DNA of 64,000 bases from Felis catus (taxonomy: Eukaryota): the NCBI RefSeq assembly GCF_018350175.1, contig NC_058368.1, forward strand, positions 19,718,001 through 19,782,000, written 5' to 3'. A program made the position numbers and the translations under genes. The notes below the pieces were generated by a model. It searched no databases. It had not been told where the DNA came from and saw nothing but the letters and a program-made list of their open reading frames with translations. Each line of letters starts with the position of its first letter. Positions within the stretch are counted from its first letter, which is position 1. Of the stretch, positions 230 through 38,511 are shown piece by piece.

Positions 230-1140
230 AGCAGACAGGTGTTCCCCAGATGACGCCCCAGGTGACGCCCGGTTTCAACCCCGAGTTGACCGTGTGACCC
301 TGAGTGCCGCCCGCAGCAGGGCCCTCCCCCCCTCTCCCTGCCCTCTGAGGCTGGGGCTGAGTGGGTGCTCCGCACAAAGCCGGACAGAGAGGCAGGGCGG
401 ACCAGAAGACTCCGCCGCGTTCCCCGTGGAGAAGAGCCCGCGGCTTTTACATAACTGGAATGACGTAACCGCCGGCGGCTCCGGAGGGCGGGGACACCGG
501 GAGCGCGGGCCCTACTACGTCCGTCCACCGCAGCGCCGCGAGGCTTGCCACAGGGCTGCGCGAATACACCAAGTAAGACGGCCCGGGCGGCCGGGTGGGC
601 GGGGCCGCTGGCAGTCACGTGGCCCGCCTCGGCGCGGGCGAGCGGGGACGCGCCCGCGACTCCGCGATCCCGCTGGGCAGACTGAGTGACAGGGCCCCCC
701 CGCAGGCATGCCGCCCGGCGGGCGGGGTCCAGCCCCGAGAGGCGGGGCTCTGCCGCGCCGGGGCCCGGATCCACTGACGTCAGGCGGCCCGCGCGCCCCG
801 GAGTCCCCTGGGCGTCACCTTGGCGCCCTGCAGGGCGTGCTCGGGTAGCCGCGCAGGGCTGCTTTTGGCCCCGGGCTGGGCGCGCCCTAAATCGCTGGTG
901 AGGACTCCGGCTTAGAACTCTCCCGAGTCGTGTGTTTTTGCTCACCGATAAAACGCAGCTTGTGGACTGTGACCTCTCGCTCCTGCTGGAACTTTCCGAA
1001 CGCCGGTTTCGGGGCGGGTGTCCGCCGTGCACCCAGTGTGAGTTTTGTGAACGGCGTTCGACGGTTTCACTGGCCTGGTGGTCACCCTCGCTGTACCCTA
1101 GCCGGCTCTCCACCTTGTGGTTTTAAGAGGCGGCCCGTTC
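230..1140. promoter_or_regulatory. CpG island promoter of the DHRS12 locus
   Basis: Very GC- and CpG-dense stretch surrounding exon 1. It contains GC boxes (GGGCGGGG ~596-604, ~720-727), a full CRE TGACGTCA 775-782, TGACGTAA 461-468, a D-box TTACATAA 447-454 and an E-box GTCACGTG 614-621. Confidence 0.85.
517..572 (+). pseudogene. DHRS12: DHRS12 pseudo-exon 1 (coding part); start codon ACG instead of ATG
   Basis: ACG TCC GTC CAC CGC AGC GCC GCG AGG CTT GCC ACA GGG CTG CGC GAA TAC ACC AA|gtaag = TSVHRSAARLATGLREYTK vs recalled human MSLYRSVVWFAKGLREYTK. Canonical donor. Confidence 0.88.
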
Positions 1141-1186
1141 CGGGGGACAGAGAGGTGGTTTTTATCTTAGAATTAATTAGAGAAAC

Positions 1187-1345
1187 GCGGTGGTTCTCAA
1201 TCCTGGCCGAATAATAGGGCAAGAATCTAAAATACCAGCGTCAGGCCCTGCCCCTAGAGATTCCAGTTCGGTTGGCCTGCACTGGGGCCTAGACTGACAT
1301 TTTATAAATATCCTCCAGGTGATTCTCATGCCGCCCAGTTATCTA
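1187..1345. mobile_element. MER5A-like hAT-Charlie MITE, degraded
   Basis: gtggttctcaa start and the ...cctccaggtgattctcatgc motif. Confidence 0.55.
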
Positions 1346-2067
1346 AGGGACCTCCTCTTCTCCCTGCACTAGGGTTTTTATGAGTTCCTAAGGCAGGCCG
1401 GCAAATTTCCGTGTTCCAAGGGGAGGCAGCATGCTGCTGCTGACTTCTCTCCTCCCCCACACGCCATCCTTTCGGGAAAAGTGCATGTTTTTCTCAGGAG
1501 CCAGGGCTGCAGAGAGTGGTGGGAAGCAGAGCTGTCAGCCCAGCTCCACTGGATTTTGGCAAATGGCAACCTCTCTCTTTCAAATAGTGGCAGTGGCCAC
1601 TATTCGCTGGGTCTTTCCCTGTTACACAGCAGCCTGGAGAGCTTGGGTTAGCTTCTCGCCCTGGGAAAGCAGGCTCCTGAAAGTCTCTCCCCGAACTCTT
1701 ACATGGGGGTGGGGGTGGATGGGGGAGGGAAAGACAATTCCTAATATTTTCATCCCCATATGAGGGTCTGTAGTTTGGGTTTGTAATGCTTTTTCTTGGC
1801 ACACCATGATTTTTACGAAGTTCCCCTATATTGCTCACCTATGCAACAGCATCAAGTCACTGTTCCCTAAACTTGCCTGAACCTGACAATTACCTGGGAC
1901 AATTAAAAAGAAAACAAACAAACCCTGACCCCTAAGCCCCTGACAGGTATAGATGAGGGCTACAATTTGCATATGCAAATTCCCTGTTGGGTAAATTGGG
2001 GGAAACTGACGCCTGGGAGCTTGCCCCCTGGTGATTCCTATCTTTGGTGGTTCCGGAAACACAAGCA

Positions 2068-2229
2068 CAGTGGTTGCTCAGCTTGAATCAGAATCACGAG
2101 GAGGGCATATGACCCTAGATGGCTGGGTACCATTTTGAACCGTGGACTCAGTAGACAACGCATTTCTAACAGGTTCTCAGGTGATGCTGATGCCACCTGT
2201 CTGGGGAGCACCCTTTGAGCCTCACTGGT
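2068..2229. mobile_element. MER5A-like MITE
   Basis: cagtggtt...cattctaacaggttctcaggtgatgctgatgc...ctttgag..cactg. Confidence 0.6.
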
Positions 2230-3089
2230 TCAGTAGAAGGTGCCCCAGGTTGGGGTGTTGAAAGAATGGAAACCCTCCTTTGGCTTTATCACCTACCATT
2301 TTGTGACCTTAGGCAAGTCATTTATTTCTCTTCACACTGAAAAATAGGGACTGGTATCAAGAGTTTGTGAACATAAAATACTTCCCCAAAAGAGGGCAGG
2401 GGGATACAAAAAAAAAAAAAAAACCCAGCCAAATCTCATTGTTCACAACAGATTGGCTGAGGACAGGATCCCGAGATGAAGTCAAAGAGCCAAGGCAAAG
2501 GACAGAAAGAGAGTGTGACAGGCCCAGCAGGCCAGCCTGGCCCCGCCCTCTTGGAAGGGCTCACAGCCTGGAGTTTGAGGAAGAGATTTAATCCACAGGA
2601 GCTGTCGTCAGCAAGCCTTAGTGTTTAATAGGATCAACATAATCTTCCGGAGGCTAAGGTCTCCTCTAGGTGTCACAGAGGAAGGCCTCAGCTTCCTGCC
2701 CCTGGAGGAGGGGATCTTTGGGGCGGTTCCTGGTTTCCCCGTATGTTCTCTGTGGCCTGCACTTCTGGCTCTCCTGTGGTTTGGGAAAGTCTCACTCGCT
2801 CCCCACCAGTACTTTTTCTCCTGGCTAGGACCCTTTAGCCTAGAAGAAGGCCCTTAGCCCCTTCTTGAGGAATCATTTGCTTCTGCAAGAAAATCCTTTC
2901 ATAGTGACCCTACCCCCCCCCCCCGCCCCCGCCCGCCAACAATTATCAGAGAAAACAAATCTTACAGCTTTATCTTTGGTTATAGTTTAAAATGCTCTCA
3001 AAGTCCCTAATGATTTGGAGGGCTGGGATGGGGGTGGGGGCAAATGAGGAACTCAGTTTTGAACATGGAGAGTATTGATGTCATTAAGA

Positions 3090-3325
3090 ATAATAGTAAC
3101 ATAGCAACTGCTGTGTATTGAACTCTTAATTTATTCCAAGTGTGGTAAGAAAATGCCTTACATACATTATCTCATCCAGGCTGCCCAATAGTTAGCTTTT
3201 ATTATCCCCTTCCTGCAGAAGAGGAGACAGGAGCCCAGAAAGGTTAAGTCAACACATGAGATCGCACAGCTATTAAGCAGGAGAGCTGTGATTGAAACCC
3301 AGGTTGTTTGATCCAAAGCCCTTAT
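3090..3325 (-). mobile_element. MIR SINE
   Basis: attatcccc..cagaagaggagac..aggttaagtcaac core. Confidence 0.65.
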
Positions 3326-4618
3326 TATTGATAATTCTTTTTAGCTTCAAGTCAGCCTCGCAGGAAGCTTTGGAAGAGTCAGAAGTCTTGCTCACCCCAC
3401 TGTGCCGCTAGCAGCAGAAGCAGTGGGAAGGGTGTTCTCTGAGCTGCCCTGGACATTCAAGTGAGTTACAGATGGTGGGAACGGGAACATTCTTCCTGGT
3501 CTTTTGGCTGTGAGACAAGGGGCCATGACTGCCCCTGTGGCAAGGACTTCCAAACCTAACCCAGGCTGATAAACATTCTTTGGCCTCCTCTCCAGTGTCC
3601 TGGCTTGTAGTTGGCAATTGTGCTATACCAGGGAGACCAGCTGTTGGCAGTCTGTGTGTAAACACCGTGTGTGGGAGGGCACTGGGCTTTGCGTAGAATC
3701 TTCAAGGGAAAGAGTCCCGTTCTCTGCTGCAGAGCAGGAGAAATCACTCGGCTCTTTGGGTGAGAGTTGCAAGCTCTGAGACCCCAGCCTGCCTGTGTGG
3801 GGGGAGGGCTCTGCCCTCAGGACCTCCTCCTGCTAATCCCCCTCCAGGCCAAACCTAGGAAAGCAAAGGTAGAAGAGGTATCTCAAAAGGCAGAGAGAAA
3901 CAGTTAAGGAACTCAGGGTTACTTTTATGCGGTGTGATCCTTTCGTGCAAATGAGGAAAAGCACCTCCTTGGTGCGCTTTGCTGCCATCTGCAAAGAAGT
4001 TGCTCTAACGCAGATACAAATCTCCCATCGCTGTGATCTGGACGGTGCCCCCTAGAGTTACGCAGCACACGCCCTGTAGCCCTGAAGGAGCCTTTGCTTT
4101 CTCCGAGGCGGTGTGAGCTCAAATAACGACCTTCCTCTAGCTTCATTCTGTACTTGCAAATCTCCCCCCTCTCACCCGTCCTTCCGTAGCTCAGTAGGGA
4201 CACCTGTCCTGCCACACAACAGGCATGATGCTAATGGTCTCCTACGCTTCTCCTCTTTTCCCCTCAAAATTGGAAAAACGGAAAATAATCCATCTATCAG
4301 AGGATTTTTTTTTTGTTTTTTGGAGGGGGGCACTTCTGGTCTCAGAGGCAGTCAGAGAAAGCTGATTTGGATGCCAGATTGTTAGGGTCTCCAAATATTT
4401 TTGAAAGTTCAGGAAGCCAGTGATGAGGAAATGTAAAGTCTGAGAGGGCAGCATTGTTCCTGAGACCAGGGAAGGAAACAGGGAGGCGTGGAAGGAAGGA
4501 GCTATGTGATGTGCTAGAGAGAGCGATCATGCCCACCTCACAACTAGGCTTTCTCCCTGCAGGGGTTTCTTTTCCTGGCTCCTTATAGTCCTTCTTTCTC
4601 TGGGCTTGCTGCTTCCAG

Positions 4619-4752
4619 GAGTGGCTGTGAACCAGCGGCTAAGGACTTTGTGCCTGAGGGCTTCGAGGTCCAAATTCCTGGAATAGCCTTCTGGGTCACT
4701 TGAGGGAACAGTGGCATTGGAAGAGCGACTGCTATTGAAATAGCCAAGCGAG
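4619..4752 (+). pseudogene. DHRS12: DHRS12 pseudo-exon 2, in-frame TGA at 4701-4703
   Basis: ttccag|G AGT GGC...: SGCEPAAKDFVPEGFEVQIPGIAFWVT*GNSGIGRATAIEIAKR|gtgag. Phase fits exons 1 and 3. Confidence 0.93.
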
Positions 4753-6195
4753 GTGAGCAGCCTGCTGTGTGTCCACTCGAGGTCAGCCTGTGGCCGCTCC
4801 ACACTGGGGAGAGAGCCCGATGTCACAGGCAGGTCAGGAAGGGCCCAGCCAGCATGGCCAGGAGTTGACCGTGATCCCGCGGTAATCAGCTGCTGATTCT
4901 GAGATGGGCATTGAGCTTCCAGCTAGAGGTGGATAGAGCACGAGACCGGAGGAGCCTGTCCTCAACTCTTAATTAATTCACAGGAGAGCTCGGGTCACGG
5001 CCACACATCATTAAGAGCAGTGAGGGGCTCCCAACCCTGGGCATCTGAATCACCAGTAGAACTGGGACCCACCTCATGTGTTGTCATTGAGCCTCTGTGG
5101 GGGGATGTAGGGAGGAGAGTGGGAGTCCACTGCAGTTTGGCTGTGGACCCTACTTAAGAATCAGTGCCCCCAGAATAACTGGAGAGTCCTCCTTCCTGGG
5201 GTCCAGGCTCCAGGCTTAGAGCAGCTGGCGATGACCTCTTATTTCTCTTCCCTAACCTTGATTTTGTGAAAAGACTCTGTGGGTTCCCTGTCAATTTTTC
5301 CATCAGCTGAAGTCTTCCTCTGGGTAAACACCAGAATTTCCTGCACGAATTCAACCGCCCTGGGTCACGCAATGGCACTGTGGTGGCTAGAAAAGGCCAC
5401 CGTGTCTATCCGGAGACTCTTCTCCAGAAAAACGGATGCTCCAGCAGAAGTTGGAGAATAGGTTGGGGATTTATCATTTTTCAAGATGCTCAAAGATGGG
5501 TTTTTTTTTTTCCCCTCTAAAATCAAGTTAGGCATTTTCCAGGGCAATATTATACCATTTGGGCTGTATTTCATTATCTACCCAGTCAGGGTGAGGAGTA
5601 AGTACATCTCAGCAACTGGGAGATCCCTCGGAAGCGTTTGGGGAGAAGGAGAGAGGCTGGTTACGTGGTTAGCTCATAGCCTCCCGTGAAACAGACTCCA
5701 TTTAATAAAGCGGGCTATTTTAAGTGAAGAGACCAGGCTCTGTAATGATCGTTTTTTAACTGTCACAGCCGAGGAATTCCCCCTTTACACTTTGATTGAT
5801 GATGGTATCATCTTTGCTGGAATAGTCTAAGTGCCATTTATGGATTCACCCACTCAGTAAATATTAATTGAGTCCCTGCTACATGTTAGGCCAGTGCTTC
5901 TGAACTCAGGTTGAGCATTAGGCTCATTTGGGAGCTTTTAAAACATACCTAGGCCTAGATCCATCATCTGGAGCTTTAAGAACTCCCCAGGTGAGTCTAA
6001 AGTGCAGCCAGGTTGAGACCTGTGTGTCAGGTGCTATGGGAGATGCTAGGGACGCATCTGTGACCAAGACCCACACTTCTTATCCTTGATGCGTTCCGAC
6101 CCCTGTAAAAATCAGGATCTTCTCCTGGGTGCCCCATCAGTCAGCCCATATAGGCAGGAGGTCGGGTTCCAGGATCACCTTCACTATTATACCTG

Positions 6196-6306
6196 CTGCC
6201 CTAACTGTGGGGACCATCCATCTAGATTTTCCAGAATAGTCTCAGTTTCAGGTATTCTTCCTGTGAGCCTGTATGTCTTAATTCATTTGGAAAAGCTGGT
6301 CTCCAC
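6196..6306. mobile_element. MER94/MER81-like hAT MITE just upstream of exon 3
   Basis: Imperfect terminal inverted repeats gtggggacca...tggtctccac. Confidence 0.4.
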
Positions 6307-6356
6307 GGCCATAGCTGTCTCTAGAACTCACAGATGGTTTCATTGAATTCCACCAG

Positions 6357-6439
6357 GTGGCACAGTTCACCCGGTGTGTCGAGATAGAGACCAGGAAGGA
6401 GGTGCCAAAGGTGAGATCATCAGGGAGAGCGGTAACCAG
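6357..6439 (+). pseudogene. DHRS12: DHRS12 pseudo-exon 3
   Basis: caccag|GT GGC ACA...: GTVHPVCRDRDQEGGAKGEIIRESGNQ|gtgag. 83 bp, frame preserved. Confidence 0.92.
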
Positions 6440-6909
6440 GTGAGCTGCTCTTTGCCCCTCCCGCTGGGGGTTTCTTGCACGCCGACCTCGTCAGCTGCTG
6501 CGGGGGCCGAACTGCTGCCCGCGCTCCCTGGCCTTGGCAGTGGCCTGTGTTGGTGCTTCTGCGTTGGAGGCAGCCCCCAACCCCCCTGGGAGCTGGAGCC
6601 GCGCTTGCTTTTCCATGGCTGGGTTTGACTCCACGCCCTGGGCTGCCCGTGAGACAGCAGGCGGGGGCCAGTCCCTGCTGCAGAGATGTTATACTGACCG
6701 TGACTCTCTTGGGATTTCCACCAGGGAAGGAGCCCGGGTCAGTGAGACACATCGAGGGGGACTCGGGCACCACAAGCCAAGCTGTGAACTGACCCAGTGG
6801 CTTTCCAATAAACAGGCAACAGTTAGCTCTTGACGAGAGCCACGTCCTCACGAGAGCTTTCAGAGCTGGCCCACATCTTGTGCTCTTCCCTTCCTAAAAC
6901 AGTCGGAGC

Positions 6910-7082
6910 CAGGACTGGCTGCGTAATTTGCGGGGCACAGCGCAAAATGAGAATGTGGGCCCCCGTGTAAAAAGTATTAAACACTTCAAGATGGTGAAGG
7001 CAGACCCCCCTGAAAGTGTGGGGCCCTTCCGAGGGTGGGGCTTGCGTACCTACACGGGTAGGACCCCGTGAAGCTGGCCCCC
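6910..7082 (-). mobile_element. MER45A-like hAT-Tip100 MITE
   Basis: caggactggctgcgtaatttgcgggg...aaaatgagaatgtgggcccc...gtgaagctggccc. Confidence 0.65.
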
Positions 7083-8897
7083 GGATGGAAAACCCGGGGA
7101 AAACCCCCTGTAAAAAGAGCTTGGGCAGTGTTCTTCGTTTCCCTCAACCTCAGTTTTCTCCTCTGAGAAATGGGGGTGGTATCATTCTGTGTTTGAACAT
7201 ATGTCTGAGAGTGAATGCTATGTCAGGCTGCATGCTAGGAGCTGGAGACAGAAAGGAGAAGACGGAAGGGGCCCCTTGCGTTCACTGAAGAATGTCCCTC
7301 TGTCCTCCCTTCCATTCTGCCGAAGTCTCCTCCTCTTTCCGGGAAACCCTCTGCTCCAGCGGGTGGGCCCGTGGGAAGGGACTGGGCGGGGACGCAGCAC
7401 CCCCTGCCCCCTCAAGCTTGGACCTTGGCCAGAAGGAAAAAATGCCCCAATCTAGAACGGAGTATTTTGCATCTGCCCCTGAAGGCTGTTATTATTATTT
7501 CTGAAATAACGTTTTCAAAGCAAGCCCCGTTCTTTCTCTTCTCACCGCGCGTCTGTGGTCTCTGGCCGTCAGATGCCGCACAGAGGCTCAGCGCTGGCGG
7601 CGAGCGTGAGGGTCTCTAAATCTTCTCTAATGCGTGAGTGCCGCCGCGATCTGGGGCTGCAGTTCTTGAGATTGAAAGCTGGCTGTCTGCCTGCTGATAA
7701 CTTTCAGTTGTGCTGCTGTGGGACGCAACAAGAATACTAATAGGCCACAGGCGGGCCAGGGATTGCCTGGATTCCAGCCTGCTGTGGTTTGGGCTACATT
7801 TTTGACAAAGTGGATTGATACGGAAAAAGGTGACAGTATGGTTTTGTTTGTAATAGTGAGCCCTCCTTATATCCACCTCCACCACTGTTGGGAGCATAGA
7901 GCTGGAAAGAGGGAGCAAACGTGTTTCCGGGGCTGGGGAGAGAGGCAGCCCGTTATTTACTGCCCCCGCCCCCCCCTCCCCATGTAAGTACCCAAGGTGG
8001 GGTCGAAGCTCACACAGTGGAGATTCCTTTTCTTGTGTTTGTAAGTGGCCTCCGGTGCAGAGAGCTCTGAGGGGTGGGGGCTGACAGGGCCTGTCCGCTC
8101 ATCCCCGTGGCGTGGTGTCCTGTCCCTGACTCAGTGTACCCGCCCCAAGCTCTGCCAGGGATCAGCCGCTCCTCCCCCTTTATGAAAGAGAGAGCTCCAT
8201 AGCTTCATCTGGTCTAGCGCATGCAGCCCCCACACAAACGTGGGGCATGGGAAGGCGCTGGGCTCGGATCGGAGTCTGGTTGTGCGCTCGCTAGCCCTGT
8301 GAGCTTAGGCAGTGTTCTTCGCTTCCCTGAACTCCAGTGTCCCCAACTGAAAAGTAGGAGTGATATTACTCTATATTTGATCATATGCTTGAGTGTGAAC
8401 CCTATGTCGGGCAGTGTGCTGGGAGCTGGGGAGAGGACAGAGTCTGACGCAGCCCCTCACGGTCTTGGGAGGGATGATGTGGTTGACAAGCAGTGGCAGG
8501 AAGCGTGGGAGTCCACCCCGGGGCCTGCCGGCTCAGCTCCGCAGCACAGAGGGGGCAGGCGGGGAGTAGATGCGCGGACCCCCCGAGTACGTGTTTCTCC
8601 CGCCTTCACATCAGCCAGCTGCTGGCCGGGTTTGGCCATTGAGGAAGATCGGTGGGTGGGAAGAAGGGAGAAGCAGGACATTCGACTTCCCTGGCAACGG
8701 CCGGACCGCTCTGAGGTTCTTCCTTTTGGTGGCGAGCCTGGCTCAGGCCACACCACCTCCTCTGTTCCTCCAGCCTAGGCTGGTAGCTTCCTGCTCTTCG
8801 TCATCCCTTGGCTGTTGGCTGGTCCCAGCTGAGCCCTGGCCTTCCTCCTCTGGGGACCAGTCCCTTCATTCAACTCCCTCTGTTGAAAGAGGTTTCT

Positions 8898-9101
8898 GGG
8901 GACGCCTGGGTGGCTCAGTCGGTTGAGCTTCCGACTTCAGCTCAGCTCATGATCTCATGGTTCGTGAGTTCGAGCCCACATCAGGCTCTCTGCTGTCAGT
9001 GCAGAGGCCGCTTTGGATCCTCAGTCCCCCCCGCCCCTCTCTCTCTTCCCCTCTCTCACTAGTGCTCTCTCTCTCTCTCAAAAATAAATAAAACATTAAA
9101 A
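8898..9101 (+). mobile_element. Can-SINE (SINEC_Fc-type)
   Basis: ggggacgcctgggtggctcagtcggtt head, (CT)n, A-rich tail. Confidence 0.9.
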
Positions 9102-9719
9102 AGAGAGAAAGTTTTCTGTTAGACGGATGTGACGTTGTGTGTGCCATGACATGGGCAGTGCAGGGTGTCATCGAGCATGTAGCTCTCAGTCAGCAGGAGA
9201 CTATTGCGTTATCCGTAGTTTTCGTACTAATGCTGTTACCACTCCCACCCTTACGTTCTCTGCTCCAAGGTACCCACTTCTCTTTAATCGGGCCGTAGGC
9301 CCGTGGAGCAGTGAGAGTATGGAGGGAGTGGTCCCGGCTGCATGTTGGGTGCAGGGGTCCCTTGAGCAGGAAGGCTTGAGCGTGTGCACCGCAGGCCAGC
9401 CGGGTCAGGTGACTGTGGGCACCAGGAAGGTGTGAGGTCGTGTTCACATCAGTGGCCTGTACACACTGGCTTGGTCCCGTCAGACGCGTGGACGGCAAGG
9501 AAGTCAACATCCTGCCGTGGTGCTCTTGCTGGAGGGAACGGATGCTTACTGACGCGAAGTCCCTGCCCGCCAGCCCGCTGTTTCTGGCACAATGTCTCCA
9601 ATGGGCCTGGGGCAGGAAATCAGAGTGGACCTTCCTTCCTCAGCTTCTTGTTGCACTTCATTACCATCTTGCTGTCTGTCTTTGATCTGGCTTGATCTCC
9701 TTGGGCAACATTTTTTAAA

Positions 9720-10150
9720 AATCTTAGAATAGTCTAATATTTTAGAACAATTTTACATGCACAGGCAAGTTGTACAACTAGTACAGAGTTCCCACTTACC
9801 CCGCATCCAGTTTCCCCTTCGTTAACGTTTATTACATTTGTTACCACCGGTGGACCAATATGGGTACTTTATTATTAACCGAAGTCCATATGCTATTCAG
9901 TTTTCCCTCGTTCTTGCCTACTGCCCCGTTTCTGTTCTCAGATCCCATCCAGGACCACATTGCTTTTGGTCATCGTGCCTCCTTAGTCTCCTCTTGGCTG
10001 TGATGGTTTCTCAGACTCTCCTAGTTTGTGATGAGCCTGAAGGTTTTGAGAAGTACAGGTCAGGGATTTTGTATACTGTCCCTCAATCAGGATTTGTCTG
10101 ATGTTTTTCTCATGATTAGACTGGAGTTACAGGTTTTGAGGAGAAAGATT
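9720..10150 (-). mobile_element. Old L1 (L1MC-like) 3' fragment
   Basis: agtacagagttccc..acccc..ccagtttcccc and gatttgtctgatgtttttctcatgattagactggagtt motifs. Confidence 0.65.
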
Positions 10151-11174
10151 ACAGAGGTGCAGTGTCGGGGCAACATTTTAACTCCTGCCACGTTCCTGAT
10201 GTGGCCAGAAGGTGCTGTAAATGTGCCTTATGTCTTGTGGGGATCGACCCCAACAATATGTGGACGCTAAGAGGTAAAACGGGGGTTTCTACTCTCCAGA
10301 TCTCCCAGGTCAATGTGGAATTTCAACCTTTTGAGAATTATTGGTTTAGCTTCCTGCCTACCCGACGTGAATATTAACTGGCACCTCATTCCTATGCGGT
10401 GATTTCTACTGAGGGCACATTCGTGCACTGTTTCCCATTTGCTCCTCAGCCTCACGCTCTCACATGGGTAGAGGGGTTCCTGTGATGTCGTCTCATGACT
10501 CCTAGGCCATGGAACATGGTGACTCATCAGCAGAAAGGATCCAGTTGGCTTTTGTTCAATTTCAACAACCACACTTGTATCCCAAGGTTTAAAGAGTTAG
10601 CACAGCAGTCCCAGTGGCTCCTAGGGCCAGCCTTGACACACGTAGATCAGCAGATTGGTGGTTTTTGCGCACTTGTGTCTGTTCCTAGCTCCTTCTGCTG
10701 GTCACAGCAGACTCCTGGCCTTCCCTTCTGGGTGCTTTCTGGCCTTCTATTTTCTCCCAGAGGGAGACAGATGATTTCCTTCCATCTTTTCATGATGCTT
10801 CATTTCAGCGGGCCCCATGGCTGATTTATCTAGGACAGTGATTCTGTCTTCCATGCTGTTACCTCCGTCCGATGCTGGGATGCCCCAGGTGCCTCCAGGA
10901 AGCTCAAGGAGGTTGTGGAATGTTCAAAGTGGAATTGATTTTCGTTCACTTGAATTTTGTTGTTTTTTGAACCTGGATTTTGTACGAGTGTTACTTGGCA
11001 CTATTGGGTAGGAGGGAGTTTTAGGGTGGTTGTGGGGAGGACCTCAAAAGAAAGGACTGGGCGTCTATAGACTTAGTTTGTAGTCATTGGAGGGGGGGTG
11101 CTCGCAGCCCATCCAGGAAGGAGTCAGCAGGCAGCCTGTGTCCACTGTGGCTGAGCAAGTGCCTTCACAGCCTT

Positions 11175-11383
11175 TTTTATTTTTTATGTTTATTTTTTAT
11201 TAGAGAGAGAGCAGGGGACGGGCAAAGGGAGAGAGAGAGGAAGAGAGAGAGAGAGAAAGAATCCCAAGAAGACTCCATGCTCTGCAGGAGCACGGTGCAG
11301 GGCTTGATCCCACGACCCTGGGATCATGACCTGAGCCAAAATCAAGTCGGACGCTCATCCAACTGAGCCACCCAGACACCCCC
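11175..11383 (-). mobile_element. Can-SINE (older subfamily)
   Basis: Reverse head ...actgagccacccagacacccc, (GA)n, T-rich tail. Confidence 0.85.
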
Positions 11384-12362
11384 ACAGTCTTTTTCAAAGA
11401 GCAGAGTCCTGTACAGACCATGCTTTTCCTAGCCTTTGAAAGTAGAGGAATATTCAGCTGTGTCAGACTTGAGCTGAATATGATAGTTAAGCTGACTATA
11501 GACCTTCTGAGGCATGAAAATGTAGGATTGTTTCCATCTTCTCATTTTCCAAGACTGTCTCAGAGAGTGAGAAAACGATATGTTTTCAGAACGGTAGAAA
11601 GAAATTCTGACTATGGTCTTGGGTTCTATGGCTTAATTAATGGGGAAATTGAGGCAAGGCACCGAACCCTGCTTTATGAAAGGAATTGTGGCTGCTGCTC
11701 AGTATCTCACCTGTCAGTTCAGTTGTCAGGTCTCTGAAGCAGCAGGAGTCTCTGCCTTGGGCTGGTGATAAGTCACAAATGCCTTCCGGGGCTCGGACAG
11801 CATGTCCTTGCATTCACTGGATACTCAGAATATAAGCTTGATTCCTATGCTGGGCACAGAGAAGGGGCTGAACAGCCCACATACATGAATCATTTATGTG
11901 TGTGGCTGTGTGTACCCCCACGAGGGAAGGGGGTGATTCAACATGTCTCCTCCATCGAGAAGTCCTGAGTCTACTGGGGGAGGGAGCTGTGTCCAGCAAT
12001 GGCTATAGCACAACGTGGAAATTGATAAACATCATAAGCAAGGACCGAGTAACAAAGGAAGTTGTCGTCTTATAGTTATGATGTACCTTGGATATTGTCG
12101 TAAGAGCAAAACATTGACAAAAAACTCCTAAATGACTGGCAGGAGGAAACTATAACACATCCATGTCAAAGTATGTTATGTAGCCATTAAAAGAAATAAG
12201 ACAGATTTATATGTAACAAAAAAATCTCCAAACCTTAAGTGAGAAAGAAGGATGCAGAGCAAGGCATAGTCTGATCCTATTTGTATGGAAGGGGGCATAT
12301 ATTTATAATATGTGTATCGTGCTTAATATATATAATATATTTATTTTTATTTAAAAAAATTT

Positions 12363-12789
12363 TAATGTTTATTTTTTATTTTTTAACGTTTATCTATTTT
12401 TGAGACAGAGAGAGACAGAGCATGAACAGGGGAGGGGCAGAGAGAGAGGGACACACAGAATCTGAAACAGGCTCCAGGCTCCGAGCTGTCAGCACAGAGC
12501 CCGACGCGGGGCTCGAACTCACGGACCGTGAGATCATGACCTGAGCCGAAGTCGGACGCTTAACCGACCAAGCCACCCAGGCGCCCCTAATGTTTATTTT
12601 TTGAGAGAGAGAGACAGAGTGCAAGTGGGGGGAGGGAAGGGCAGAGAGAGAGGGAGACAGAATCTGAAGCAGGCTCCAGGTTCTCACCTGTCAGCACAGA
12701 GCCTAATGCAGGGCTTGAACTCACAAGCCACAAGATCAGGGCCTGAGCCTAAGCTGGACATTTAACCAACTGAGCCACCCAGGTGCCCC
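12363..12789 (-). mobile_element. Two nested Can-SINEs (younger 12378-12587 inserted in the tail of older 12588-12789)
   Basis: Two heads ending ...gcgcccc and ...gtgcccc. Target-site duplication (TSD) taatgtttatttttt at 12363-12377 and 12588-12602. Confidence 0.88.
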
Positions 12790-13043
12790 TAATATACATA
12801 GTCTATATTATGCTTTAAACATATGTATATAACTACTATACATGCTTAAAATATTTCTGGATGATTAATAAGAAACGGTGAGCGACGGTTTACTTTCGAG
12901 GAGTGAGATTGTTACTTTCCGTTTTGTATTTCCAAACTATTTTATTTTAAAACCATGTACATGTATTTTGAATTAAAAAATGCTAGTTTCTATCTTTTTT
13001 TAAAAAAAAAGCGTTACAACTTTTTGTTTGTGTTCTGGTTTAG

Positions 13044-13136
13044 AACATCTTTCTGCACATCGTGGCCTTGTCTAATTCCAAGAAAATATGGGAATTTATT
13101 GAAAATTTCAAGCAGGAAAAGAAACTCAACATTCTG
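13044..13136 (+). pseudogene. DHRS12: DHRS12 pseudo-exon 4
   Basis: tttag|NIFLHIVALSNSKKIWEFIENFKQEKKLNIL|gtaag. 93 bp, canonical splice sites. Confidence 0.92.
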
Positions 13137-13456
13137 GTAAGTTTTATAAACATAAGTAGAGGATAAATTTCGTGTGTGTACATTTTTGGTCTACGTAGGT
13201 ATGGAGCGATGTGTGTGTTTGTGGGTCTTTGTGACGACGTCTTAGTGAGAATCCTTTATGGTGAGGCTTATTCGTGCAATCAGTTTACACACTGGCTTCA
13301 AGGGGAGTGGGAGGATGGGGATATTCCATTTTTCATAAAATGACGATGCGTATATCTGCATTCCTGAGCTCTGTAGATTTGGGGATGGGTGTATTAAAAT
13401 TAGAGGTTCTTGGAAAAATAAAAACAAGAAGTTTAGTCCAAAAGAATGCCTGCTAC

Positions 13457-13673
13457 AGGAACGCCTGACTGGCTCAGTCGGTTAAGTGTCTGACTTTGCC
13501 TCAGGTTATGATCTCACGGCTCATGAGTATGAGCCCCGTGTCGTGTCGGGCTCTGTGCTGACAGCTCAGAGCCTGGAGCCTGCTTCGGATCCTGTGTCTC
13601 CCTCTCTCTCTCCTTCCCTGCTCATGCTCGCTCGCTCTCTCTCTAAAGTAAATAAACAATAAAAAAAAAATTT
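13457..13673 (+). mobile_element. Can-SINE with TSD aagaatgcctgctac
   Basis: Direct repeat at 13442-13456 and 13674-13688 flanks the SINE body. Confidence 0.9.
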
Positions 13674-13862
13674 AAGAATGCCTGCTACCAACAAGCAGAC
13701 CTTTTAGTAGCACAGTGTGGGATTCCACAGTGAGCCAGGAGGACTCAGGTGGGATGGTATGTGTCTGTTCCTCCCAGATGCTCTGCGTTGAGCTGAGCTG
13801 CTTTTCTATCCAAACAGTTTCTAACGTGCTCCAAAACGCCCGTTTGGGCCAAGCTCTGGTCT

Positions 13863-14146
13863 TGTGCTGTCCAATATGGCTATAGAACATTGGAAATGCA
13901 GGTAGTCCAAATTGAAATATGCTGTAAGTGTAAAAATGAGCCCATTCCAAAGACTTGGTCTGAAAAAAAAAAAAAAGCAAACCATCTCATTAATATTTTT
14001 ATATTGGTTACAGGTTGAAATAATACTACTTTGGAGATATTGAGTAAATAAAATATATTATTAACATTTACCTGTTTCTTCTTACCTTTTTAATGTGGCT
14101 GCTTTTGAGAAAACTTCAATTCTATATTTCTGTTGGACAGCTCTGG
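13863..14146 (-). mobile_element. MER33-like hAT-Charlie MITE
   Basis: gtgctgtccaata ... taatgtggct...tgttggacagctctg termini. Confidence 0.7.
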
Positions 14147-14410
14147 TCTAGATGCAATCCCAGAGCACCTCACTGAGGATTCGGTTGCCCAGCCAACCCC
14201 TTGTAATTGGAGATCTCTGCACAGTTCTGTGGCTGAGCTTTCTGCACTAGTGGCATTTTCCTGGAAGGGGTTTGACATGAAGGGACAGTTGAGCAGGACT
14301 GTGGTCGTCACTTGGATGTGGGACTATTGGTGGTCATGGAGGTGTGGAGTTTGGAAACAGGTCTTCTGGCCCTGTTTGCCTGTATTTTGAGATGGGAATG
14401 TAATTTCTAG

Positions 14411-14494
14411 ATCAATAGTGCAGGTTGCATGGTCAATAAGAGAGAGCTCATTGAAGATGGCCTTGAAAAAAACGCTTTGCTCCCTGTGCTCTGG
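14411..14494 (+). pseudogene. DHRS12: DHRS12 pseudo-exon 5, +2 frameshift and donor GT->GA
   Basis: ttctag|INSAGCMVNKRELIEDGLEKN, then extra GC (14474-14475), then FAPCALG in the shifted frame. Followed by gagagt instead of gtgagt. Confidence 0.88.
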
Positions 14495-14940
14495 GAGAGT
14501 ATGAGCAGTTTTCTTAGCAAAATAAGCAGAGACCTAGATAACACCATAGAAGGATCAGAAAAATATCGGCCACCTTTTTGTGTTCTTGGTCCTAAGCACG
14601 ATTGTATTTTCCTCTTTCGCTGCATTAAATTTTCTTCATAAGACACTCTTTAAAAAATGCTTTTCTCGTGTTTTTTTATAATATGTGTTAGTGCCAGAAA
14701 TACTTAGCATTGTTAAAGCATTTTTTTCTAGGAAGCTCCAGGCTCATTATAGATGTTATTTTGGCAAGGAGCGCTGGTTCATCCCCCGTGGAATGTGCAA
14801 AGGGAACTTCTAGCCAGGGCTGAGGAAGGTGCAACCATGAGACGAGAGGACAGATCAGAAAGGGCGTTCAGTTAGAATGCAGGACATCTGGATCCTGGTC
14901 CCTGATCTGTTATAACAGGCTCACTCATTTGATGCCAGCC

Positions 14941-28684: not shown

Positions 28685-28984
28685 TTTCTTTTTAAGTTTA
28701 TTTATTTATTTATGTTTTTAAAGATTTTTTTTCAAGTTATTTTTTTTAATATTTATTTTTGAGGCAGAGACAGAGCATGAGCAGGGGAAGGGCAGAGAGA
28801 GAGAGGGAGACACAGAATCCAAAGCAGGCTCCAGGCTCTGAGCTGTCAGCACAGAGCCCGACGCGGGGCTCGAACTCACAAACTGTGAGATCATGACCTG
28901 AGCCGAAGTTGGACGTTCAACCTGCTGAGCCACCCAGGCGCCCCTATTTATTTTGAGAGAGAAAGGGAGTGTGAGCTGAGGAGG

Positions 28985-29032
<48 letters not shown>

Positions 29033-31509: not shown

Positions 31510-31571
31510 GTGTGTGTATCCTCACGAGTGCCCTGATCCCTGCCTCGGAGGAAGAATACGACTCCAGAGCG
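31510..31571 (+). pseudogene. DHRS12: DHRS12 pseudo-exon 6
   Basis: ccccag|GT GTG TGT ATC CTC ACG AGT GCC CTG ATC CCT...AGA GCG|gtgagt = VCILTSALIPASEEEYDSRA vs recalled VYILTTGLIPVLEKEHDPRV. 62 bp. Confidence 0.88.
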
Positions 31572-32289
31572 GTGAGTTGAGCTCTTGGGATGTTTTGTGG
31601 GTTTGGCGTTGTTCCTGACAGGAAGCCGGTGGGCCTACATTTGGTCCAGACCCACGGGGAGAGCCAGCTCGTCCGGTGGGCCCACGGGCCTTCTCTTTGG
31701 TCACCTGAAATCAAGCAGTGTTGTGCCAGCCTGGACGGCAGCGAGGTGTGTCTGGAGAGGCGCTGACTGAAGGCTGGGAGGGACCCAGGTCAAGAGGAGG
31801 GTCAGTCCGGTGCTTCTTCCTGAGGACACACGTGCTTAAGGAGCTCCTGGCGTGTGGACTAGGATTCCCGAATGTTCATCCGGGCAGTAGAGGCTTCCTG
31901 GGAACCCGCTCCGAAGAGCACCTTCGCGTCCCCTACTCCTGCCTCCTGCCACGGCCGGTGGCTGCCTGCCGCCCACACACAGCCTACGAATTCCCTGCGA
32001 AAAGGGAGGCGGAACTATGCAACTAGAAACGTTAAAGACTCCAGTCCTCCCCGGAGGCTTTTCCCCATGATCATCTGGGAGTGGGCAGAGCGTCAGGAAA
32101 GGGAGGCCTCTGAAGAGCAGGGCAGCTGTGGGAGGCATTCAGGTCAAGGGTGAGGGGGTGCATTTCCTGGAGAGCATGCTGCTCTGATGAGAGACGACAG
32201 GTTTGTGGAGCCGGTTCTCTCCTAATAGGTTAAAATGACCCGCTCAGAGAAATCAGGGAGAAGGCAGTATATGCAGGCTGCCTTCTCTC

Positions 32290-32757
32290 TGCGGTAGTGG
32301 GCAGAATAATGACCACCTCCCACCCCCCGAGGTCCATGTCCTAATTCCTGGGACCTGTCACTATGTCACCTTTACATGGGGGAAGGGGACCTTGCACAAG
32401 TGACTAAATGAAGGACATTGGGATGGGGGGAGTATCCTGGGTTATCCAGGTGGGCCCAGCATAAGCACGAGGGTCAACAGAAGGAAGGGAGGTGAGTGCG
32501 AGTTGGAGAAGGAGACGGTCTCCTTCCGGGAGAAGAAGAGGTCACTGGGGCAGGGCAGCCATGAGCAAGGAATGCAGGCGGCCCCTGGAAGCCAGGGAAG
32601 GCGAGGCACTGGTCTCCCCTAACACTTGCAGAGCGAACACGGCTCTGTGACACCTCGATTTCAGACCTCCGGCCTCCAGAACTGTAAGAGAGTGCATCTG
32701 TGTGGTCTTAAGCCACTAAGTTTGTGGCCATTTGTTACCACCACCACTGAGAAAATT
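32290..32757 (+). mobile_element. MLT1D-like MaLR solo LTR
   Basis: ggcagaataatg..gtccatgtcctaattcctgg..tatcctgggttatccaggtgggccc..aagccactaagtttgtgg..tttgttac. Confidence 0.85.
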
Positions 32758-32836
32758 AATTTGCTGCTTGGCAGAGAAGAGGAATGGGAAGGTATTGTCC
32801 ATTTTTGCTTATAAACTTCTCTTGTACGTATTGTAG

Positions 32837-32940
32837 ACGACAGTCTCCTTGGGAGGAATGCTGGTTCAGACACTGAATCCCAATGACCTAAGTGAGAAAG
32901 GACGGCACTTAATGGAACTATGGTCTGTGCACAAAACAAA
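32837..32940 (+). pseudogene. DHRS12: DHRS12 pseudo-exon 7 (active-site exon), -1 frameshift, catalytic Y->C
   Basis: ttgtag|TTVSLGGMLVQTLNPNDL..[shift]..ERTALNGTMVCAQNK|gtaagt. 104 bp where 105 is needed. Confidence 0.9.
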
Positions 32941-32975
32941 GTAAGTGACGTGGCTTCCTTGAGACTGCATTTTAT

Positions 32976-33376
32976 GGAGTATTACTTGGTGAGCAAAAAG
33001 AATGAAATCTTGCCATTTGCAACAACGTGGATGGAACTAGAGGGTATTATGCTAAGCGAATGAGTCAGAGAAAGACAAATATGACTTTACTCATATGTGG
33101 AATTGAAGAAACAAAACAAATGAACATAAGGGAGGGGAAGCAAAATATGAAAACAGGGAGGGGGACAGACCATAAGAGACTCTTAAATACAGAGAACAAA
33201 CTGAGGGTTGCTGGAGGGGTGGTGGGTGGGGGGATGGGCTAAATGAGTAAGGGGCATTAAGGAGGACACTTGTTGGGATGCGCACTGGGTATCATATGTA
33301 GGGGATGAGGCACTGGGTTCTACTCCTGAAATCATTCTTACAATAGATGCTAACTTGGATGAAAATTTTTAAAAAA
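32976..33376 (+). mobile_element. Carnivore L1 3' fragment with perfect TSD agactgcattttat
   Basis: aatgaaatcttgccatttgcaacaacgtggatggaactagaggg; TSD at 32962-32975 and 33377-33390. Confidence 0.92.
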
Positions 33377-34807
33377 AGACTGCATTTTATTAATGTGCCA
33401 CACGGGCCCTTTTCCACAACAGGTTTATTGTAGAATGTACATTGATTCGGATCCTAGTAGTTGACGGCATGCCCTGCAAAGTTCCTGGCACAGCGGGAGT
33501 CCTCTTCATGAGGGGCCAGGCGTGGCCGTGCTCAGACCAGGGAGGACCTTCATCGTGCTCCTGGGAGAAGCCACAGAGGCTGCCAGCTCTCTTCTCAGCG
33601 TTTCTCAGGCCCACAGAAGAATTGCCGAAGGCTGGCGACCATCCGAACAGGCAGGAGCCTGGCAGAGGCGTCCCTGCCCCGCACGGCTCAGAGAGAGTAA
33701 GGATGGTGAGAGGTCACTCCTCCCTCCTGTGGGCAGCCCTTGGCTCACCGGCCACAGATGTCACAGCAGTGACTGGGTTCCCTGTGCTCGCTTTGGAGGG
33801 CGTGCATGTTCAGTTCTGGAGCACTGAAAGGCAAGGGTCCAGATCTCTTACCTGATCTTAACAGAAACTACAGTCATACCACCGTATCTCAGCGTGTGAC
33901 AGCTATTTCGAAAAGCCCCATCTGTAACTTCCACGTTGACATTCTTGCCCTTAAACTCAACTGGGGGGGCTCCCTCGTTGTCTGTGAAGCTGCCGGCACC
34001 CATCAGCTCCCCTGTCATTGGTGCTGTCTGTCTCTGAAGGCCTCCCTGCCCAGTGCTCCCCCACTCCACCTCTGTCCTCCGCGTGCCCCGAGTATGTCCC
34101 GCTTTTGCTCGCTGATCTGCGGACCGTTGCTGGTGGATTACTTCTCAGGCCTCGAAATCCTGATGTTTCAAAGAGCCATACTTCTTCCCAGTTTTCCCAG
34201 GGGGCATGGGGATAAACCAGTCTCTCATTACAAAAGAGGCCTGGATGGAGTTCTTTGCGAAACATAAGCAAGCTGCCCTGGGATTGGGCAACAGCGGAGA
34301 TACAGCTGAGGCTCCCGTGCAGGGTGTGCTCTCCAGGCATGTCCAGCGTGTGGCCCACGCCCTAAGATGGGAGTTAACTCACATATTAGTGGGCAGCCCG
34401 CTCAGTGCCAGCCTGTGCCGGGGGCCTGAGGTCCCACAGCCAGCAGGGCAGATCCTGCCCTCGCCCAGCCTAGGTACAGCGAAGGCTAGAGTGGCATGAC
34501 CCCCTTGGGAAAGGGGCAGATCTTGGCACTAATTTCACAGGGAGGGGCTCAGGAGGCCCAGGCAGCGTGCAGCATGACTTCCTTCATTGTCATGGTCACT
34601 CTCTTATGCTCCTTCCACCTCCTGAGGGGGGGCCAGGGTGCAGCCCTGGGTTCCAGGGAGGCGTCCATAAAGGGCTGATCAGGAGGACCGGGAAGCGACA
34701 TCTGTGCACACTGCTGTCCCAAACGAGGCTTGTGGGATGAGCGCCTGCAGCCAGCTCCCTTGCCTCACACCTGAGGGCGCCTTCTCTCTCCAGTCTCCCT
34801 GGTCCAG

Positions 34808-34870
34808 AGGCGGCGGAGGGTTCTGAGCGGGGGACCCGAGGGCACCTGGCTCCATTGCTCATCGTGCCAG
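34808..34870 (+). pseudogene. DHRS12: DHRS12 pseudo-exon 8, eroded by deletions
   Basis: Pyrimidine tract + ccag|AGG CGG CGG AGG GTT CTG ..AG CGG GGG ACC CGA GGG CAC CTG GC.TC CAT resembles RQQVVLTERWAxGHPAIH. The 3' part (HPGWADT) is missing, and CCAG is followed by gaagg (no GT donor). Confidence 0.65.
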
Positions 34871-37369
34871 GAAGGTCGCGGCCTTTAACTTCCGTGCAGA
34901 GCAGCCACAGGATTGACTCTCCCCAGGAACGACCTAAAACCAGAGTAAAGAGGACTAGGGAATTGCTTTAAGAGGGGCACATTGGGACTAGAAAGGGAGA
35001 AGCCTTGTCCTCAGAGGCAGTGCTTTGGTCTCCAGTTTGCATTGGGCGTGGCTGAAGGGGGCAGTGCTGGAGTCGGGGGGACCACTGGGGGGCCCCTCCT
35101 CCACGAGCTGTCCTGACTCCGGCAGCCTGGTGACAGAGGGGGCTGGTAAACGCTGGCTTTCCCGTGTCAGAGAGGCATGAACCGGGGCCGAGGGAAGTTG
35201 ATGGGAGACCGATGGGGACCTGGGGACAGGCCCAGGCCCCCGCACCCCCACCCAGGTTTCTAGACATGGCGAGTGTGCAAAGGTAAGTAATAATCACTAA
35301 GGAGACAACTAGAATTATCTGGAAGCATGTTGGAACAGAAGGCGAGCACAGCTCTCTTCGGGATCTGCCCTTCCCAACTTTTATGAGGAGCTCTCGGGAA
35401 AGACCTCCTAAAACAAGGGAACTAAACCCAGCAGCAGACACCCCCATACACCCGAGGTGCCAAGGGCCACTCCCAGTGCCACCTGGGTACGATGCGTGTG
35501 TCCTCACGGCCCCCAGGGGATGGGCACCGCTGTCACCCCGTTTACAGGGGGGAACCAAGCACAGAGGCTGCCGGCCCAGCCGGGCCCGGCCACAGCGTCT
35601 GGGAAGCACGCTCTCGAACACCGCTGCCCCCTCTCCGAGAGCCAGTTTGTTAGAAGCCTAATTTGGATACACATCCTTGGAGTCAGTCCTAAGAAATAAT
35701 TAAAGATCTGGGAAACGAGGCTGCTCGTCGCAGCACTAGTGAGAGAGGGAGGTGATAAATTATGGAACACCTGTACAAGAAATCTGTTCAAACCTGAAAA
35801 CCCTGCCGTAGATAAATGTCTGTGGGAGACGAAAACTGTCTGCACCGTATCATTAAATGAAGAGATCCGGTTCCAAAACCGTGCATGCCTTGTGATCCGA
35901 TTCTTCCTATACCCGCGCGGCCGTAGAAGGAGACATGTGTTGGTGCTGGGGAGCATGCTGCAGAACCCTGGCTCGGAGACCTGGCCCAGATTAGCCCTCT
36001 GATGCACAGACCTGAGGAGGCTCTGAATATCCTGTGACGAATGCCCAGGGGATGTTCTCAGGGAAGCACACGCCCCAGGAGCGACTCAGGCCAGGAGTGC
36101 TGGGAGAGCGGCTTCTCGGTTCTTCTCCCTTCCTGAGGGAGACGTGCTTGGCTCTGCCTGACCGAGGTGAGCGCCATCAGGCCGCGGAGGGCCCCCTGCC
36201 CCTTGGTGCTCTGGGCGCATCATCCGGACACCTCCACCGTCAGCCTGTGTGCTTACAAAATCTCCGCCAGCAAGCCCACCGCCCGGATCTGTGCGCCTGG
36301 CCCACGGGTCACAGAGCGACGACCAGGCCTCTTGGGTTCAGGCAGCCCGGCTGTGGCCCTGGAGACCCGAGGGAGGGCTGGACGGGGGGACTGAGCACAT
36401 GGACGCCTGTCCTCCATGAGCACTGCAACAGAAGGCGCCAGATTCCTTCTTGCTCTTCGGTATTTCCTCATTTTCCCATAATGAACAAGTAAGTACTGCT
36501 TCTGTAAAAAAGAAGAAAAAAGCTTAGTTTTAATTTAAAAAATGAGAGCCCTACATGACACGATCCTTTCTAGCTCTGACATCCTCTGATCTCATTACAG
36601 CTCTTGAAGGTTTACTCTGGTTTCTTTTCTTTCCTTGGCTTCCCAGGAGAACGCTTTTGTTTCCCAGTGTGCTCACTATAGAGACGCCGTGTTCCCGGAG
36701 GCCCGTGGGCAAACGGGCCGCCGCCTGCAGCCGGCCGTGGGGCCCCGGGGAGGTGACGCTGGGTGAGGAGCCTGTGTGTAGCCAAGGGCCAGGGTGGGGA
36801 GGGAGGACGCGGCCGAGCAGCTTGGCAGAGGCAGTAAAGTTCCTTCGCTCTTACCGTGTTCCTCCCTGAAAAGAAGAAAACACTTCAAGAAGCCAGGATA
36901 CTCTGAGAGGCCAGACTCATTCGAGCAAGACAGCCGACCCGGGAGGCGGGAGTCTGAGCGTTCGAGCGGCCTCGGCCTCAGCGCGGCCCTCACGCCGTTG
37001 GAAGGAGACCCGGGTCCAGCATGCAGAGGGAAGGGGGGCGGTGCAGGGGATTTCGCTCCCAGGGGATGGGCTGGGATGGGTGCCCATGTCCCAGGGCCCG
37101 GAGGGCACAGGACCCAACACGCTCGCAGGCTCTGGTGGGCAGCACTTTCCACCCAGGCCGAGGGGCGACCCCTCAGGGCCTAACAAGAAGGTCTGGAAGC
37201 CGAGCAGCTTGGCTGAGTGCTGTTTTGAAGGGGAAAGAGAGCAGTTCCCGATCACAGTCCTTTGTGTTACTAGCGGTACTGGTATTAAAAGGAGGCCAGC
37301 CATTCACAGTCTCTTCACTTGAGAATGCCGTCCTAATCTCCTCGTGTCTCTGTCCCTTCCTTCTTGCGG

Positions 37370-37455
37370 CCGGCCGTGCACTGGGCTAAAGGACGGCGTG
37401 CTGTGGCCGCCCCGCCCCTGCGACCCCGCACACCTCAGCACAGGGTCTGGGAAGG
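37370..37455 (+). pseudogene. DHRS12: Possible remnant of DHRS12 exon 9
   Basis: Pyrimidine tract ending ttgcgg (possibly a mutated tgcag), then GAC GGC GTG CTG TGG CCG...GCA CAC CTC AGC, resembling DTMLWLA...AQPS. Short and GC-rich, so weak evidence. Confidence 0.35.
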
Positions 37456-38401
37456 CGGCTCACGCCCTCTCTCTCTAACCACACACTGGGGCCTCTCCAT
37501 GTGGAGCCTCCCCTCCATGAAACTCAGGGTAGGGTGGGACTGTCCTCTTTCCTCATGAGTGTCCCCAGGCTTCACCAGTGAGACGGGTCCCTGGCCTGTC
37601 GGGGTGAGTTTTGTAAAGTGCCTCACCAGATTTTACACCCCCGTCTTTCTGAACTCAGGGGGTCCCTGGAAGACGGAAGTCCTCAGGTTGTGATCAGGGT
37701 CATCAAAGTCCTAGGCAAGGCCATGCCCTCCCTGGGTAAAGGCGATCCCAACCGGGGAGGTGGAAGGTCACCTGGGAAGCTGACCGAACCCCGGGGAACG
37801 GGACCCGTCCATAGCAGCAACGCGAAGCACGTTGGCCGTGACTCGGCTTTTCTATTTCTGGAGGCGGTTATCTGTTGGGGTTTTGTTCTCTAGCTGGGCA
37901 GAGTCCCAAGGGACAAGCTCCGGGACAGGAGGAGCTGGGAGGAGGTGGCCAGGGAGCTCCGGGAGGAAGCCGCGTCTTCTCTCTGGCTCTCTCTCCATCA
38001 CGGATAACCACTCTTGAGCCGTTGTGAGGCTCTCGGTGACCCTGTGGCCGCGAGGATGGCTGCACTTCTCCCTTGGCTACCGCCTGCCCGGCTCCCGAAC
38101 ACCTCACACTCCTGCCGTGGGCAAGCCCCACCCAGCCGCACCCCTGCCCCAAGGCCCTCCCTCAGCCCCCAATGTCTGTGTCAGGCAAACTCCCCTGACT
38201 CCTCGTTCTCCCCTGCTGGGTCTCCCTGCTGTATGTAGCACGTCAGGACACTTCTCCGTGTGGACCCCTGAGGGCTGGGGCGGCACTTGTGGGCCCCCGG
38301 CAGGGGTCGCTGACATGACCCATCTGGGGCCCTTGCAGCCACAGGCAGAGGCCAGTCACGAAGCTGCCGTTCTCACAGCTTGGTTTCTCCGTCACTTTTA
38401 G

Positions 38402-38511
38402 CTCAGAAATCGGTTCCCACATACTTGCCCTCTTGCCAGACCATCCTCCTCATCGACTGAAGAGGGGAAACGAATAGAAATCCTGAAGAGCTGGCTCAGA
38501 GATCTAAGGAA
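38402..38511 (+). pseudogene. DHRS12: DHRS12 terminal pseudo-exon with +1/-1 frameshifts and lost stop
   Basis: ttttag|CT CAG AAA TCG GTT CCC ACA TAC TTG CC[C]T CTT GCC AGA CCA TCC TCC TCA TCG ACT GAA GAG GGG AAA CGA ATA GAA ATC CTG [-]AA GAG CTG GCT CAG AGA TCT AAG GAA, vs recalled DRKPVSTHLPLATASSSPAEEEKLIEILEQLAQTFK*. Confidence 0.88.

Follow-up and report, generated by a model that had tools for sequence, protein, structure and literature searches.

Human DHRS12 (SDR40C1) is, according to Table 1 of PMC9859523, a short-chain dehydrogenase/reductase (SDR) gene of 10 exons with the motifs GGNSGIG and YAQNK and the intron phase formula 120020022, and we took the SDR motif definitions used here, including the catalytic consensus YAQNK, from the same table. 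The nearest paralogous family, the SDR7C retinol dehydrogenases (RDH11-14 and DHRS13), has the classical SDR fold and motifs in common with DHRS12, with 28-33% identity to the human protein (Table 2 of PMC9859523); that paper proposes placing SDR40C1 with SDR7C because of common splice sites. Zebrafish 36K is DHRS12, has a mammalian orthologue and is the third most abundant myelin protein of the central nervous system, and the authors of that statement know no evidence for the 36K orthologue in mammalian myelin (PMC8060510). Effects of DHRS12/36K on membrane lipid composition and on Notch signalling have been reported (PMC8073704). Gene loss in the cat has an example in the sweet-receptor gene TAS1R2, a unitary pseudogene with frame-disrupting lesions at its syntenic locus (PMC1183522). 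Here we analyze a stretch of 64,000 nucleotides (nt) of the Felis catus genome (C1:19718001-19782000 of a 2.43 Gb assembly in 71 contigs, with 0 N), henceforth referred to as the window. We conclude with high confidence that positions 517-38511 of its + strand are the orthologous DHRS12 locus, reduced to a unitary pseudogene.

The locus is unable to encode a short-chain dehydrogenase. It resembles human DHRS12 and the placental orthologues in its adjacency to WDFY2, in exon order, in the positions of introns 1-7 and 9 and, if the phase labels 1 and 2 of the published table mirror ours, in the phases of these introns. Unlike the human gene, it has lost the start codon, the glycine motif, the catalytic tyrosine, the stop codon, one splice donor, the reading frame and exons 8-9, and so no enzyme can be made. 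The cat locus belongs to the same gene family as zebrafish 36K; that it is dead agrees with a dispensable role in at least some mammals. TAS1R2 differs from it in having a known function and a matching phenotype, whereas DHRS12 has no known mammalian substrate or phenotype; the loss of DHRS12 also looks older and is probably wider than Felidae.

The first clue was the translation 'VT*GNSGIGRATAIEIAKRG' at ~4700 on the + strand, found in a motif scan. The exon that contains it (exon 2, with the stop read as X) retrieved DHRS12-like proteins when used as a phmmer query. A second protein search gave 3103 matches at E<=1e-20, and of these the best 120 nearly all bear the name 'dehydrogenase/reductase SDR family member 12'; human DHRS12 (P0082, 317 amino acids) is one of them. 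A word-index search with the same exon at the 'longer' lengths gave no candidate. When the human protein was searched against the window with tblastn, exon 2 was matched at E 1e-14 with 70% identity, exon 4 at 3e-10, exons 3 and 5 at 4e-7, exon 7 at 5e-5, exon 6 at 0.011, and exons 1 and 10 at 0.17. A profile built from 41 full-length DHRS12 proteins and searched in all six frames recovered the same matches in the same order. The remnants are not chance matches, because the best profile match on the minus strand reached merely E 3.7. The relationship is also reciprocal: exon 2 of the window finds proteins named DHRS12, and human DHRS12 finds the window as the sole locus with several matches at 67-73% identity.

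Eight of the ten DHRS12 exons (1-7 and 10) are recognizable between 517 and 38511, colinear on the + strand and with introns between them. A preliminary description of this DNA had counted about ten exon remnants; the order and the introns that it reported hold, and the count has to be lowered to eight. Introns 1-7 and 9 all lie at the expected codons, and their phases are, in that order, 2, 1, 0, 0, 1, 0, 0 and 1; AG acceptors are present wherever they are expected in all eight remnants. The phases fit those tabulated in PMC9859523 only if its labels 1 and 2 mirror ours; the phase-0 introns agree outright.

The lesions are spread over the length of the gene. Exon 1 (517..572, amino acids 1-19) begins with ACG in place of ATG at 517-519, and the nearest upstream stop is 17 codons away with no methionine between. 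Its donor GTAAGA (573-578) is intact: the junction ACC AA|GTAAGA splits the codon for Lys19, and the matching acceptor of exon 2 reads ttccag|G. Exon 2 (4619..4752) has the reference length of 134 nt, an intact acceptor (ttccag) and an intact donor (GTGAGC), and Gly47 of the cofactor motif GGNSGIG is replaced by TGA at 4701-4703, so that the motif reads *GNSGIG. Exon 3 (6357..6439, 83 nt) and exon 4 (13044..13136, 93 nt) keep their frames and donors (GTAAGT for exon 4) and carry Leu69>Pro at 6371-6373 and Asp99>Ala at 13065-13067, respectively, the latter in a segment where IVDLSD has become IVALSN. Exon 5 (14411..14494) is 84 nt long instead of the expected 82 because of a frame-shifting 2-nt insertion at 14474-14475; its NNAG motif has become NSAG (14417-14419), and its donor has changed from GT to GA (14495-14496). 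Exon 6 (31510..31571, 62 nt) has an intact frame and donor (GTGAGT) and carries Tyr152>Cys. Exon 7 (32837..32940) measures 104 nt against an expected 105, with codon 189 missing, 2 nt inserted at 32897-32898 and the frame shifted. In this exon VSSGG has become VSLGG (32849-32851) and the catalytic Tyr201 is Cys (TGT, 32926-32928), changing YAQNK to CAQNK; the donor (GTAAGT) is intact. In the last exon, exon 10 (38402..38511), 1 nt has been gained at 38431, a leucine codon has been cut to CT (-1 nt) at 38483-38484, and the stop codon is replaced by GAA at 38509-38511.

The three motifs of a functional classical SDR (GGNSGIG, NNAG and Tyr-x-x-x-Lys) thus read *GNSGIG, NSAG and CAQNK in the window. 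The start loss, the nonsense codon, the active-site substitutions and the stop loss had all been noticed in the preliminary description, as had at least four frameshifts; we count four frame-disrupting indels, in exons 5, 7 and 10. It had also listed two lost donors, which proves to be one too many: among seven readable donors, only that of exon 5 is lost.

For exons 8-9 (amino acids 206-282), no remnant was detectable in the interval 32941..38401 of the + strand. Neither tblastn nor the 41-sequence hidden Markov model (HMM) gave a signal for them in any of the six frames of the window, and they were not found elsewhere when the entire assembly was searched with human DHRS12. We also aligned this part of the protein to 32950-38400 with a frameshift-tolerant method, using the reverse complement, 12 shuffled sequences and the real remnants as controls. 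The score of 46 was no better than those of the shuffles (33-59) or the reverse complement (49), and the same alignment scored 108 on the real remnants of exons 6-7 and 92 on exon 10. The two exons have been either deleted or decayed past recognition. One weak candidate for them, at 33637-33777 (score 39), was rejected because the reverse complement and the shuffles scored equally well or better.

We searched for other copies of the gene with human DHRS12 in six frames of all 71 contigs (2.43 Gb). Fourteen matches were obtained, three of them in the window at 67-73% identity. The remaining 11 comprise 10 at 30-49% identity and one 33-residue fragment on contig C15 at 58%, and no second DHRS12-like copy was found outside the window. 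The loci matched outside the window are other SDR genes; identities of this order mean that they are neither substitutes for DHRS12 nor the source of the remnant exons. An intact copy elsewhere in the genome and a better match of the exons to a different SDR, either of which would have spoken against the earlier identification, were not found in this search. Full-length orthologues of 317 amino acids are present in cetaceans, ruminants, camelids, primates, tree shrew, colugo, shrews, hedgehog and afrotheres. A processed copy, already argued against in the preliminary description, is excluded by the AG/GT-bounded introns over 38 kb at the parental position. The pseudogene is unitary because it keeps its introns where the human 10-exon gene has them, WDFY2 is adjacent, there are many independent disabling lesions and the assembly holds no other copy, with the orthologues intact in other species.

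We assessed how far the remnant has decayed by comparing it with 19 intact placental DHRS12 proteins of 317 amino acids, for which 239 remnant codons could be placed in register. The remnant agrees with the placental consensus at 173 of these codons (72%, with one truncated leucine codon counted as leucine), whereas the intact orthologues agree with it at 266-310 of 317. Of the 145 columns that do not vary among the 19 references, 29 are changed in the remnant; a leave-one-out control gave only 0-5 changes at 145-150 such columns for each intact orthologue. This excess is direct evidence of lost constraint. With a Poisson correction, it corresponds to ~0.22 replacements per codon at invariant codons, or roughly 0.10 per non-synonymous site. 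Mammalian neutral rates are 1-2.2e-9 per site per year, from which we infer an age of ~45-100 million years, with a wide error.

A second indication of age is independent of rates. A word-index search with exon 4 returned just two proteins, an annotated cat protein (P0270, considered below) and P0271, a protein of 80 amino acids named DHRS12 from Prionailurus iriomotensis that comprises exons 3, 4 and 6. Over the 77 codons shared with P0271, 22 derived changes are common to both, one is found only in the window and three only in Prionailurus. Seven of the common changes lie at invariant columns (L69P, D99A, P103S, H117K, Y152C, L162S and V170A). Since 22 of the 23 derived changes in the window are common to Prionailurus, nearly all of the decay predates that split. 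Inactivation appears to date back tens of millions of years, to a time long before the divergence of the living cats and possibly in early Carnivora.

The preliminary description had called the loss old, which these comparisons bear out, and had placed it probably at the level of felids or feliforms, possibly in connection with the metabolism of an obligate carnivore. We consider it unlikely that DHRS12 was lost recently, in Felidae alone and in connection with hypercarnivorous metabolism. Such a loss would agree with the fact that the carnivore-labelled DHRS12 proteins retrieved come from two felids only, and a felid or feliform origin is compatible with our data in that the cat window is the only carnivore DNA compared. 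Against it, the change at 29 of 145 otherwise invariant codons (the ~0.10 replacements per non-synonymous site) gives at the above neutral rates an age that lies beyond that of the living cats and of the cat family, and the derived changes were almost all in place before Prionailurus separated. No intact caniform DHRS12 occurs in the best 120 of the 3103 matches or, in 10 laurasiatherian clusters, among the members listed, and the likewise broken-looking DHRS12 models of a bat and a manatee speak against a diet-specific cause. A link to obligate carnivory, as proposed earlier, finds no support here.

We return to an old loss of DHRS12 and consider its breadth. The best 120 of the 3103 matches include proteins of cetaceans, ruminants, camelids, hippo, primates, tree shrew, colugos, eulipotyphlans, afrotheres, birds, reptiles, amphibians and fishes, and among these 120 there is no DHRS12 of a carnivore, rodent, lagomorph, perissodactyl, pangolin, pig, elephant or marsupial. 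Reptile and fish proteins at ~60% identity do appear among them. An intact carnivore DHRS12 should outscore the primate proteins. Either recurrent loss or just the composition of the list could explain these absences. The listed members of those 10 laurasiatherian clusters (with up to 40 members read and 15 listed in each) are all cetartiodactyl or eulipotyphlan, with no intact carnivore DHRS12 among them. A protein atlas gave family-level neighbours only, with no useful taxon range. The model from the fruit bat Pteropus (P0012) has 192 amino acids, runs from exon 3 into an intron and reads GGKSGIG. The manatee model (P0016) is flagged 'LOW QUALITY PROTEIN', lacks exons 4-5 and has threonine at the Met1 position, as in the window. 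As annotated sequences, these two models suggest independent decay of DHRS12 in other orders.

Listings of annotated proteins, which are not a test, thus suggest that DHRS12 is broken in several orders; the loss probably extends beyond felids, and DHRS12 may have been dispensable repeatedly. A more specific proposal, that DHRS12 was inactivated no later than the early carnivoran radiation, and separately in several further placental orders, is put forward tentatively, as a possibility to which we give somewhat less than even weight. If true, a major myelin enzyme of fish would be repeatedly dispensable in mammals, the pattern of loss could help to infer the substrate of DHRS12, and lesions common to several orders could serve as phylogenetic markers within Laurasiatheria. 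We found no report of DHRS12 loss in the literature searched, outside which lie the large public loss catalogues and bioRxiv supplements. DHRS12 is absent from the text supplements of three papers on gene loss or carnivore genomes (PMC6386725, PMC5090899 and PMC7498332). A mention of 'Dhrs12' in a paper on bone was set aside as evidence for a rodent gene, as it refers to RNA sequencing of human HEK293T cells.

The annotated cat protein P0270 is named DHRS12 [Felis catus], has 361 amino acids and is 100% identical to the window. It joins an unrelated open reading frame (ORF; 708-815 and ~905-1039), exons 3 and 4, exon 7 in a shifted frame and further unrelated sequence (~36645-36761 and 36873-37319). 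The 5' coding pieces, within 708..1039 on the + strand, are non-homologous and not ancestral to DHRS12. The result is a chimeric ORF that lacks an SDR domain and has just 58 residues in the DHRS12 frame. No Pfam family was found in P0270, whereas human DHRS12 scores 82 bits on adh_short. A protein atlas gave family-level neighbours only, with no useful taxon range.

We infer that P0270 is a transcript-based gene model laid over a transcribed pseudogene. The locus would then still be transcribed, the sole indication being a gene model in which the true exons 3, 4 and 7 are spliced with unrelated ones. The resulting RNAs would either not code for protein or contain a meaningless ORF, in which case the 'protein-coding' label in the cat annotation would be an artefact. 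RNA-labelled sequencing runs contain 9-68% of the mostly intronic interval 4551-14550, which is no evidence of expression. Two stretches of the window, 1-2000 and 34000-38000, are rich in guanine and cytosine (GC content 0.58-0.60). The first lies at the 5' end of the dead gene and may be a still-active CpG-island promoter, which would explain continued transcription.

Several points weigh against an old pseudogene as the explanation of this locus. Cat DHRS12 is listed as protein-coding in Table 2 of PMC10969784, and a source names P0270 as DHRS12; P0270 probably derives from the same assembly as the window and is hence not independent of it. All lesions are known from the assembly sequence alone and not site by site in reads. 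The age in years depends on an assumed neutral rate and an assumed split time, and the within-felid counts used as a clock are small (1 and 3). Beyond the cat, the comparison covers annotated proteins only.

One alternative is that the locus is alive and encodes a different functional protein, the annotated product of 361 amino acids. P0270 is annotated as a protein, and its ORF stays open over spliced exons that match the window exactly. We consider this very improbable, given that the product contains no Pfam family, that outside its 58 DHRS12-frame residues it consists of out-of-frame exon 7 and GC-rich non-homologous sequence, and that the Prionailurus model of the same locus is a different fragment of 80 amino acids, showing that the ORF is not conserved even among cats. 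Errors of assembly or sequencing, or a null allele polymorphic in one individual, would suit lesions read from an assembly but can be practically dismissed, since more than 10 independent lesions of varied kinds and two missing exons stand beside four clean neighbouring exons in sequence with no N, 14 DNA runs that carry the species label of the window and come from 7 studies contain 93-96% of the 31-mers sampled from 4551-14550 (agreement that is general and not site-specific), and the model of a second species (P0271) has the same replacements at invariant positions.

The cat locus is a real, ordinary and old unitary pseudogene that has been mis-annotated as coding, and not a cat-specific adaptation. 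Correcting the annotation matters because studies that treat cat DHRS12 as a gene, such as selection scans, count a pseudogene. The locus also adds a documented natural knockout of an orphan enzyme whose sole studied role is in fish myelin. It hints that DHRS12 is dispensable in more mammals than cats, which is a comparative question and not evidence for dietary adaptation.

Downstream of the remnant, and convergent with it, lies the 3' part of a WDFY2-like gene (46835..55365, minus strand). Its four exons are a WD40-like exon (55365-55260), a FYVE exon (50467-50337, Pfam E 6.8e-13), an exon at 48030-47922 and a last exon that includes the TGA stop (46864-46835). All four are open and have AG/GT borders, in agreement with the earlier statement that the WDFY2 exons are without lesions. 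The DHRS12 remnant thus adjoins minus-strand FYVE/WD40 exons, and human DHRS12 presumably adjoins WDFY2 in the same convergent arrangement. On cat chromosome A1 the gene order is TMEM272, DHRS12, WDFY2 in Table 2 of PMC10969784. The name WDFY2 is taken from that table, from the domain content and from general knowledge. The ~8.3 kb between the end of the remnant and the WDFY2-like stop (38512-46834) are presumably a long 3' untranslated region and intergenic sequence.

A repeated element occurs in + frames at ~11.3k, 12.5k, 12.8k, 15.4k, 23.3k, 28.9k and 42.8k of the window, with near-identical translations (…LQALSCQHRA…DHDLSRS…LSHPGAP…). It looks like a dispersed family of short interspersed nuclear elements (SINEs), similar to the carnivore SINEs derived from transfer RNA.

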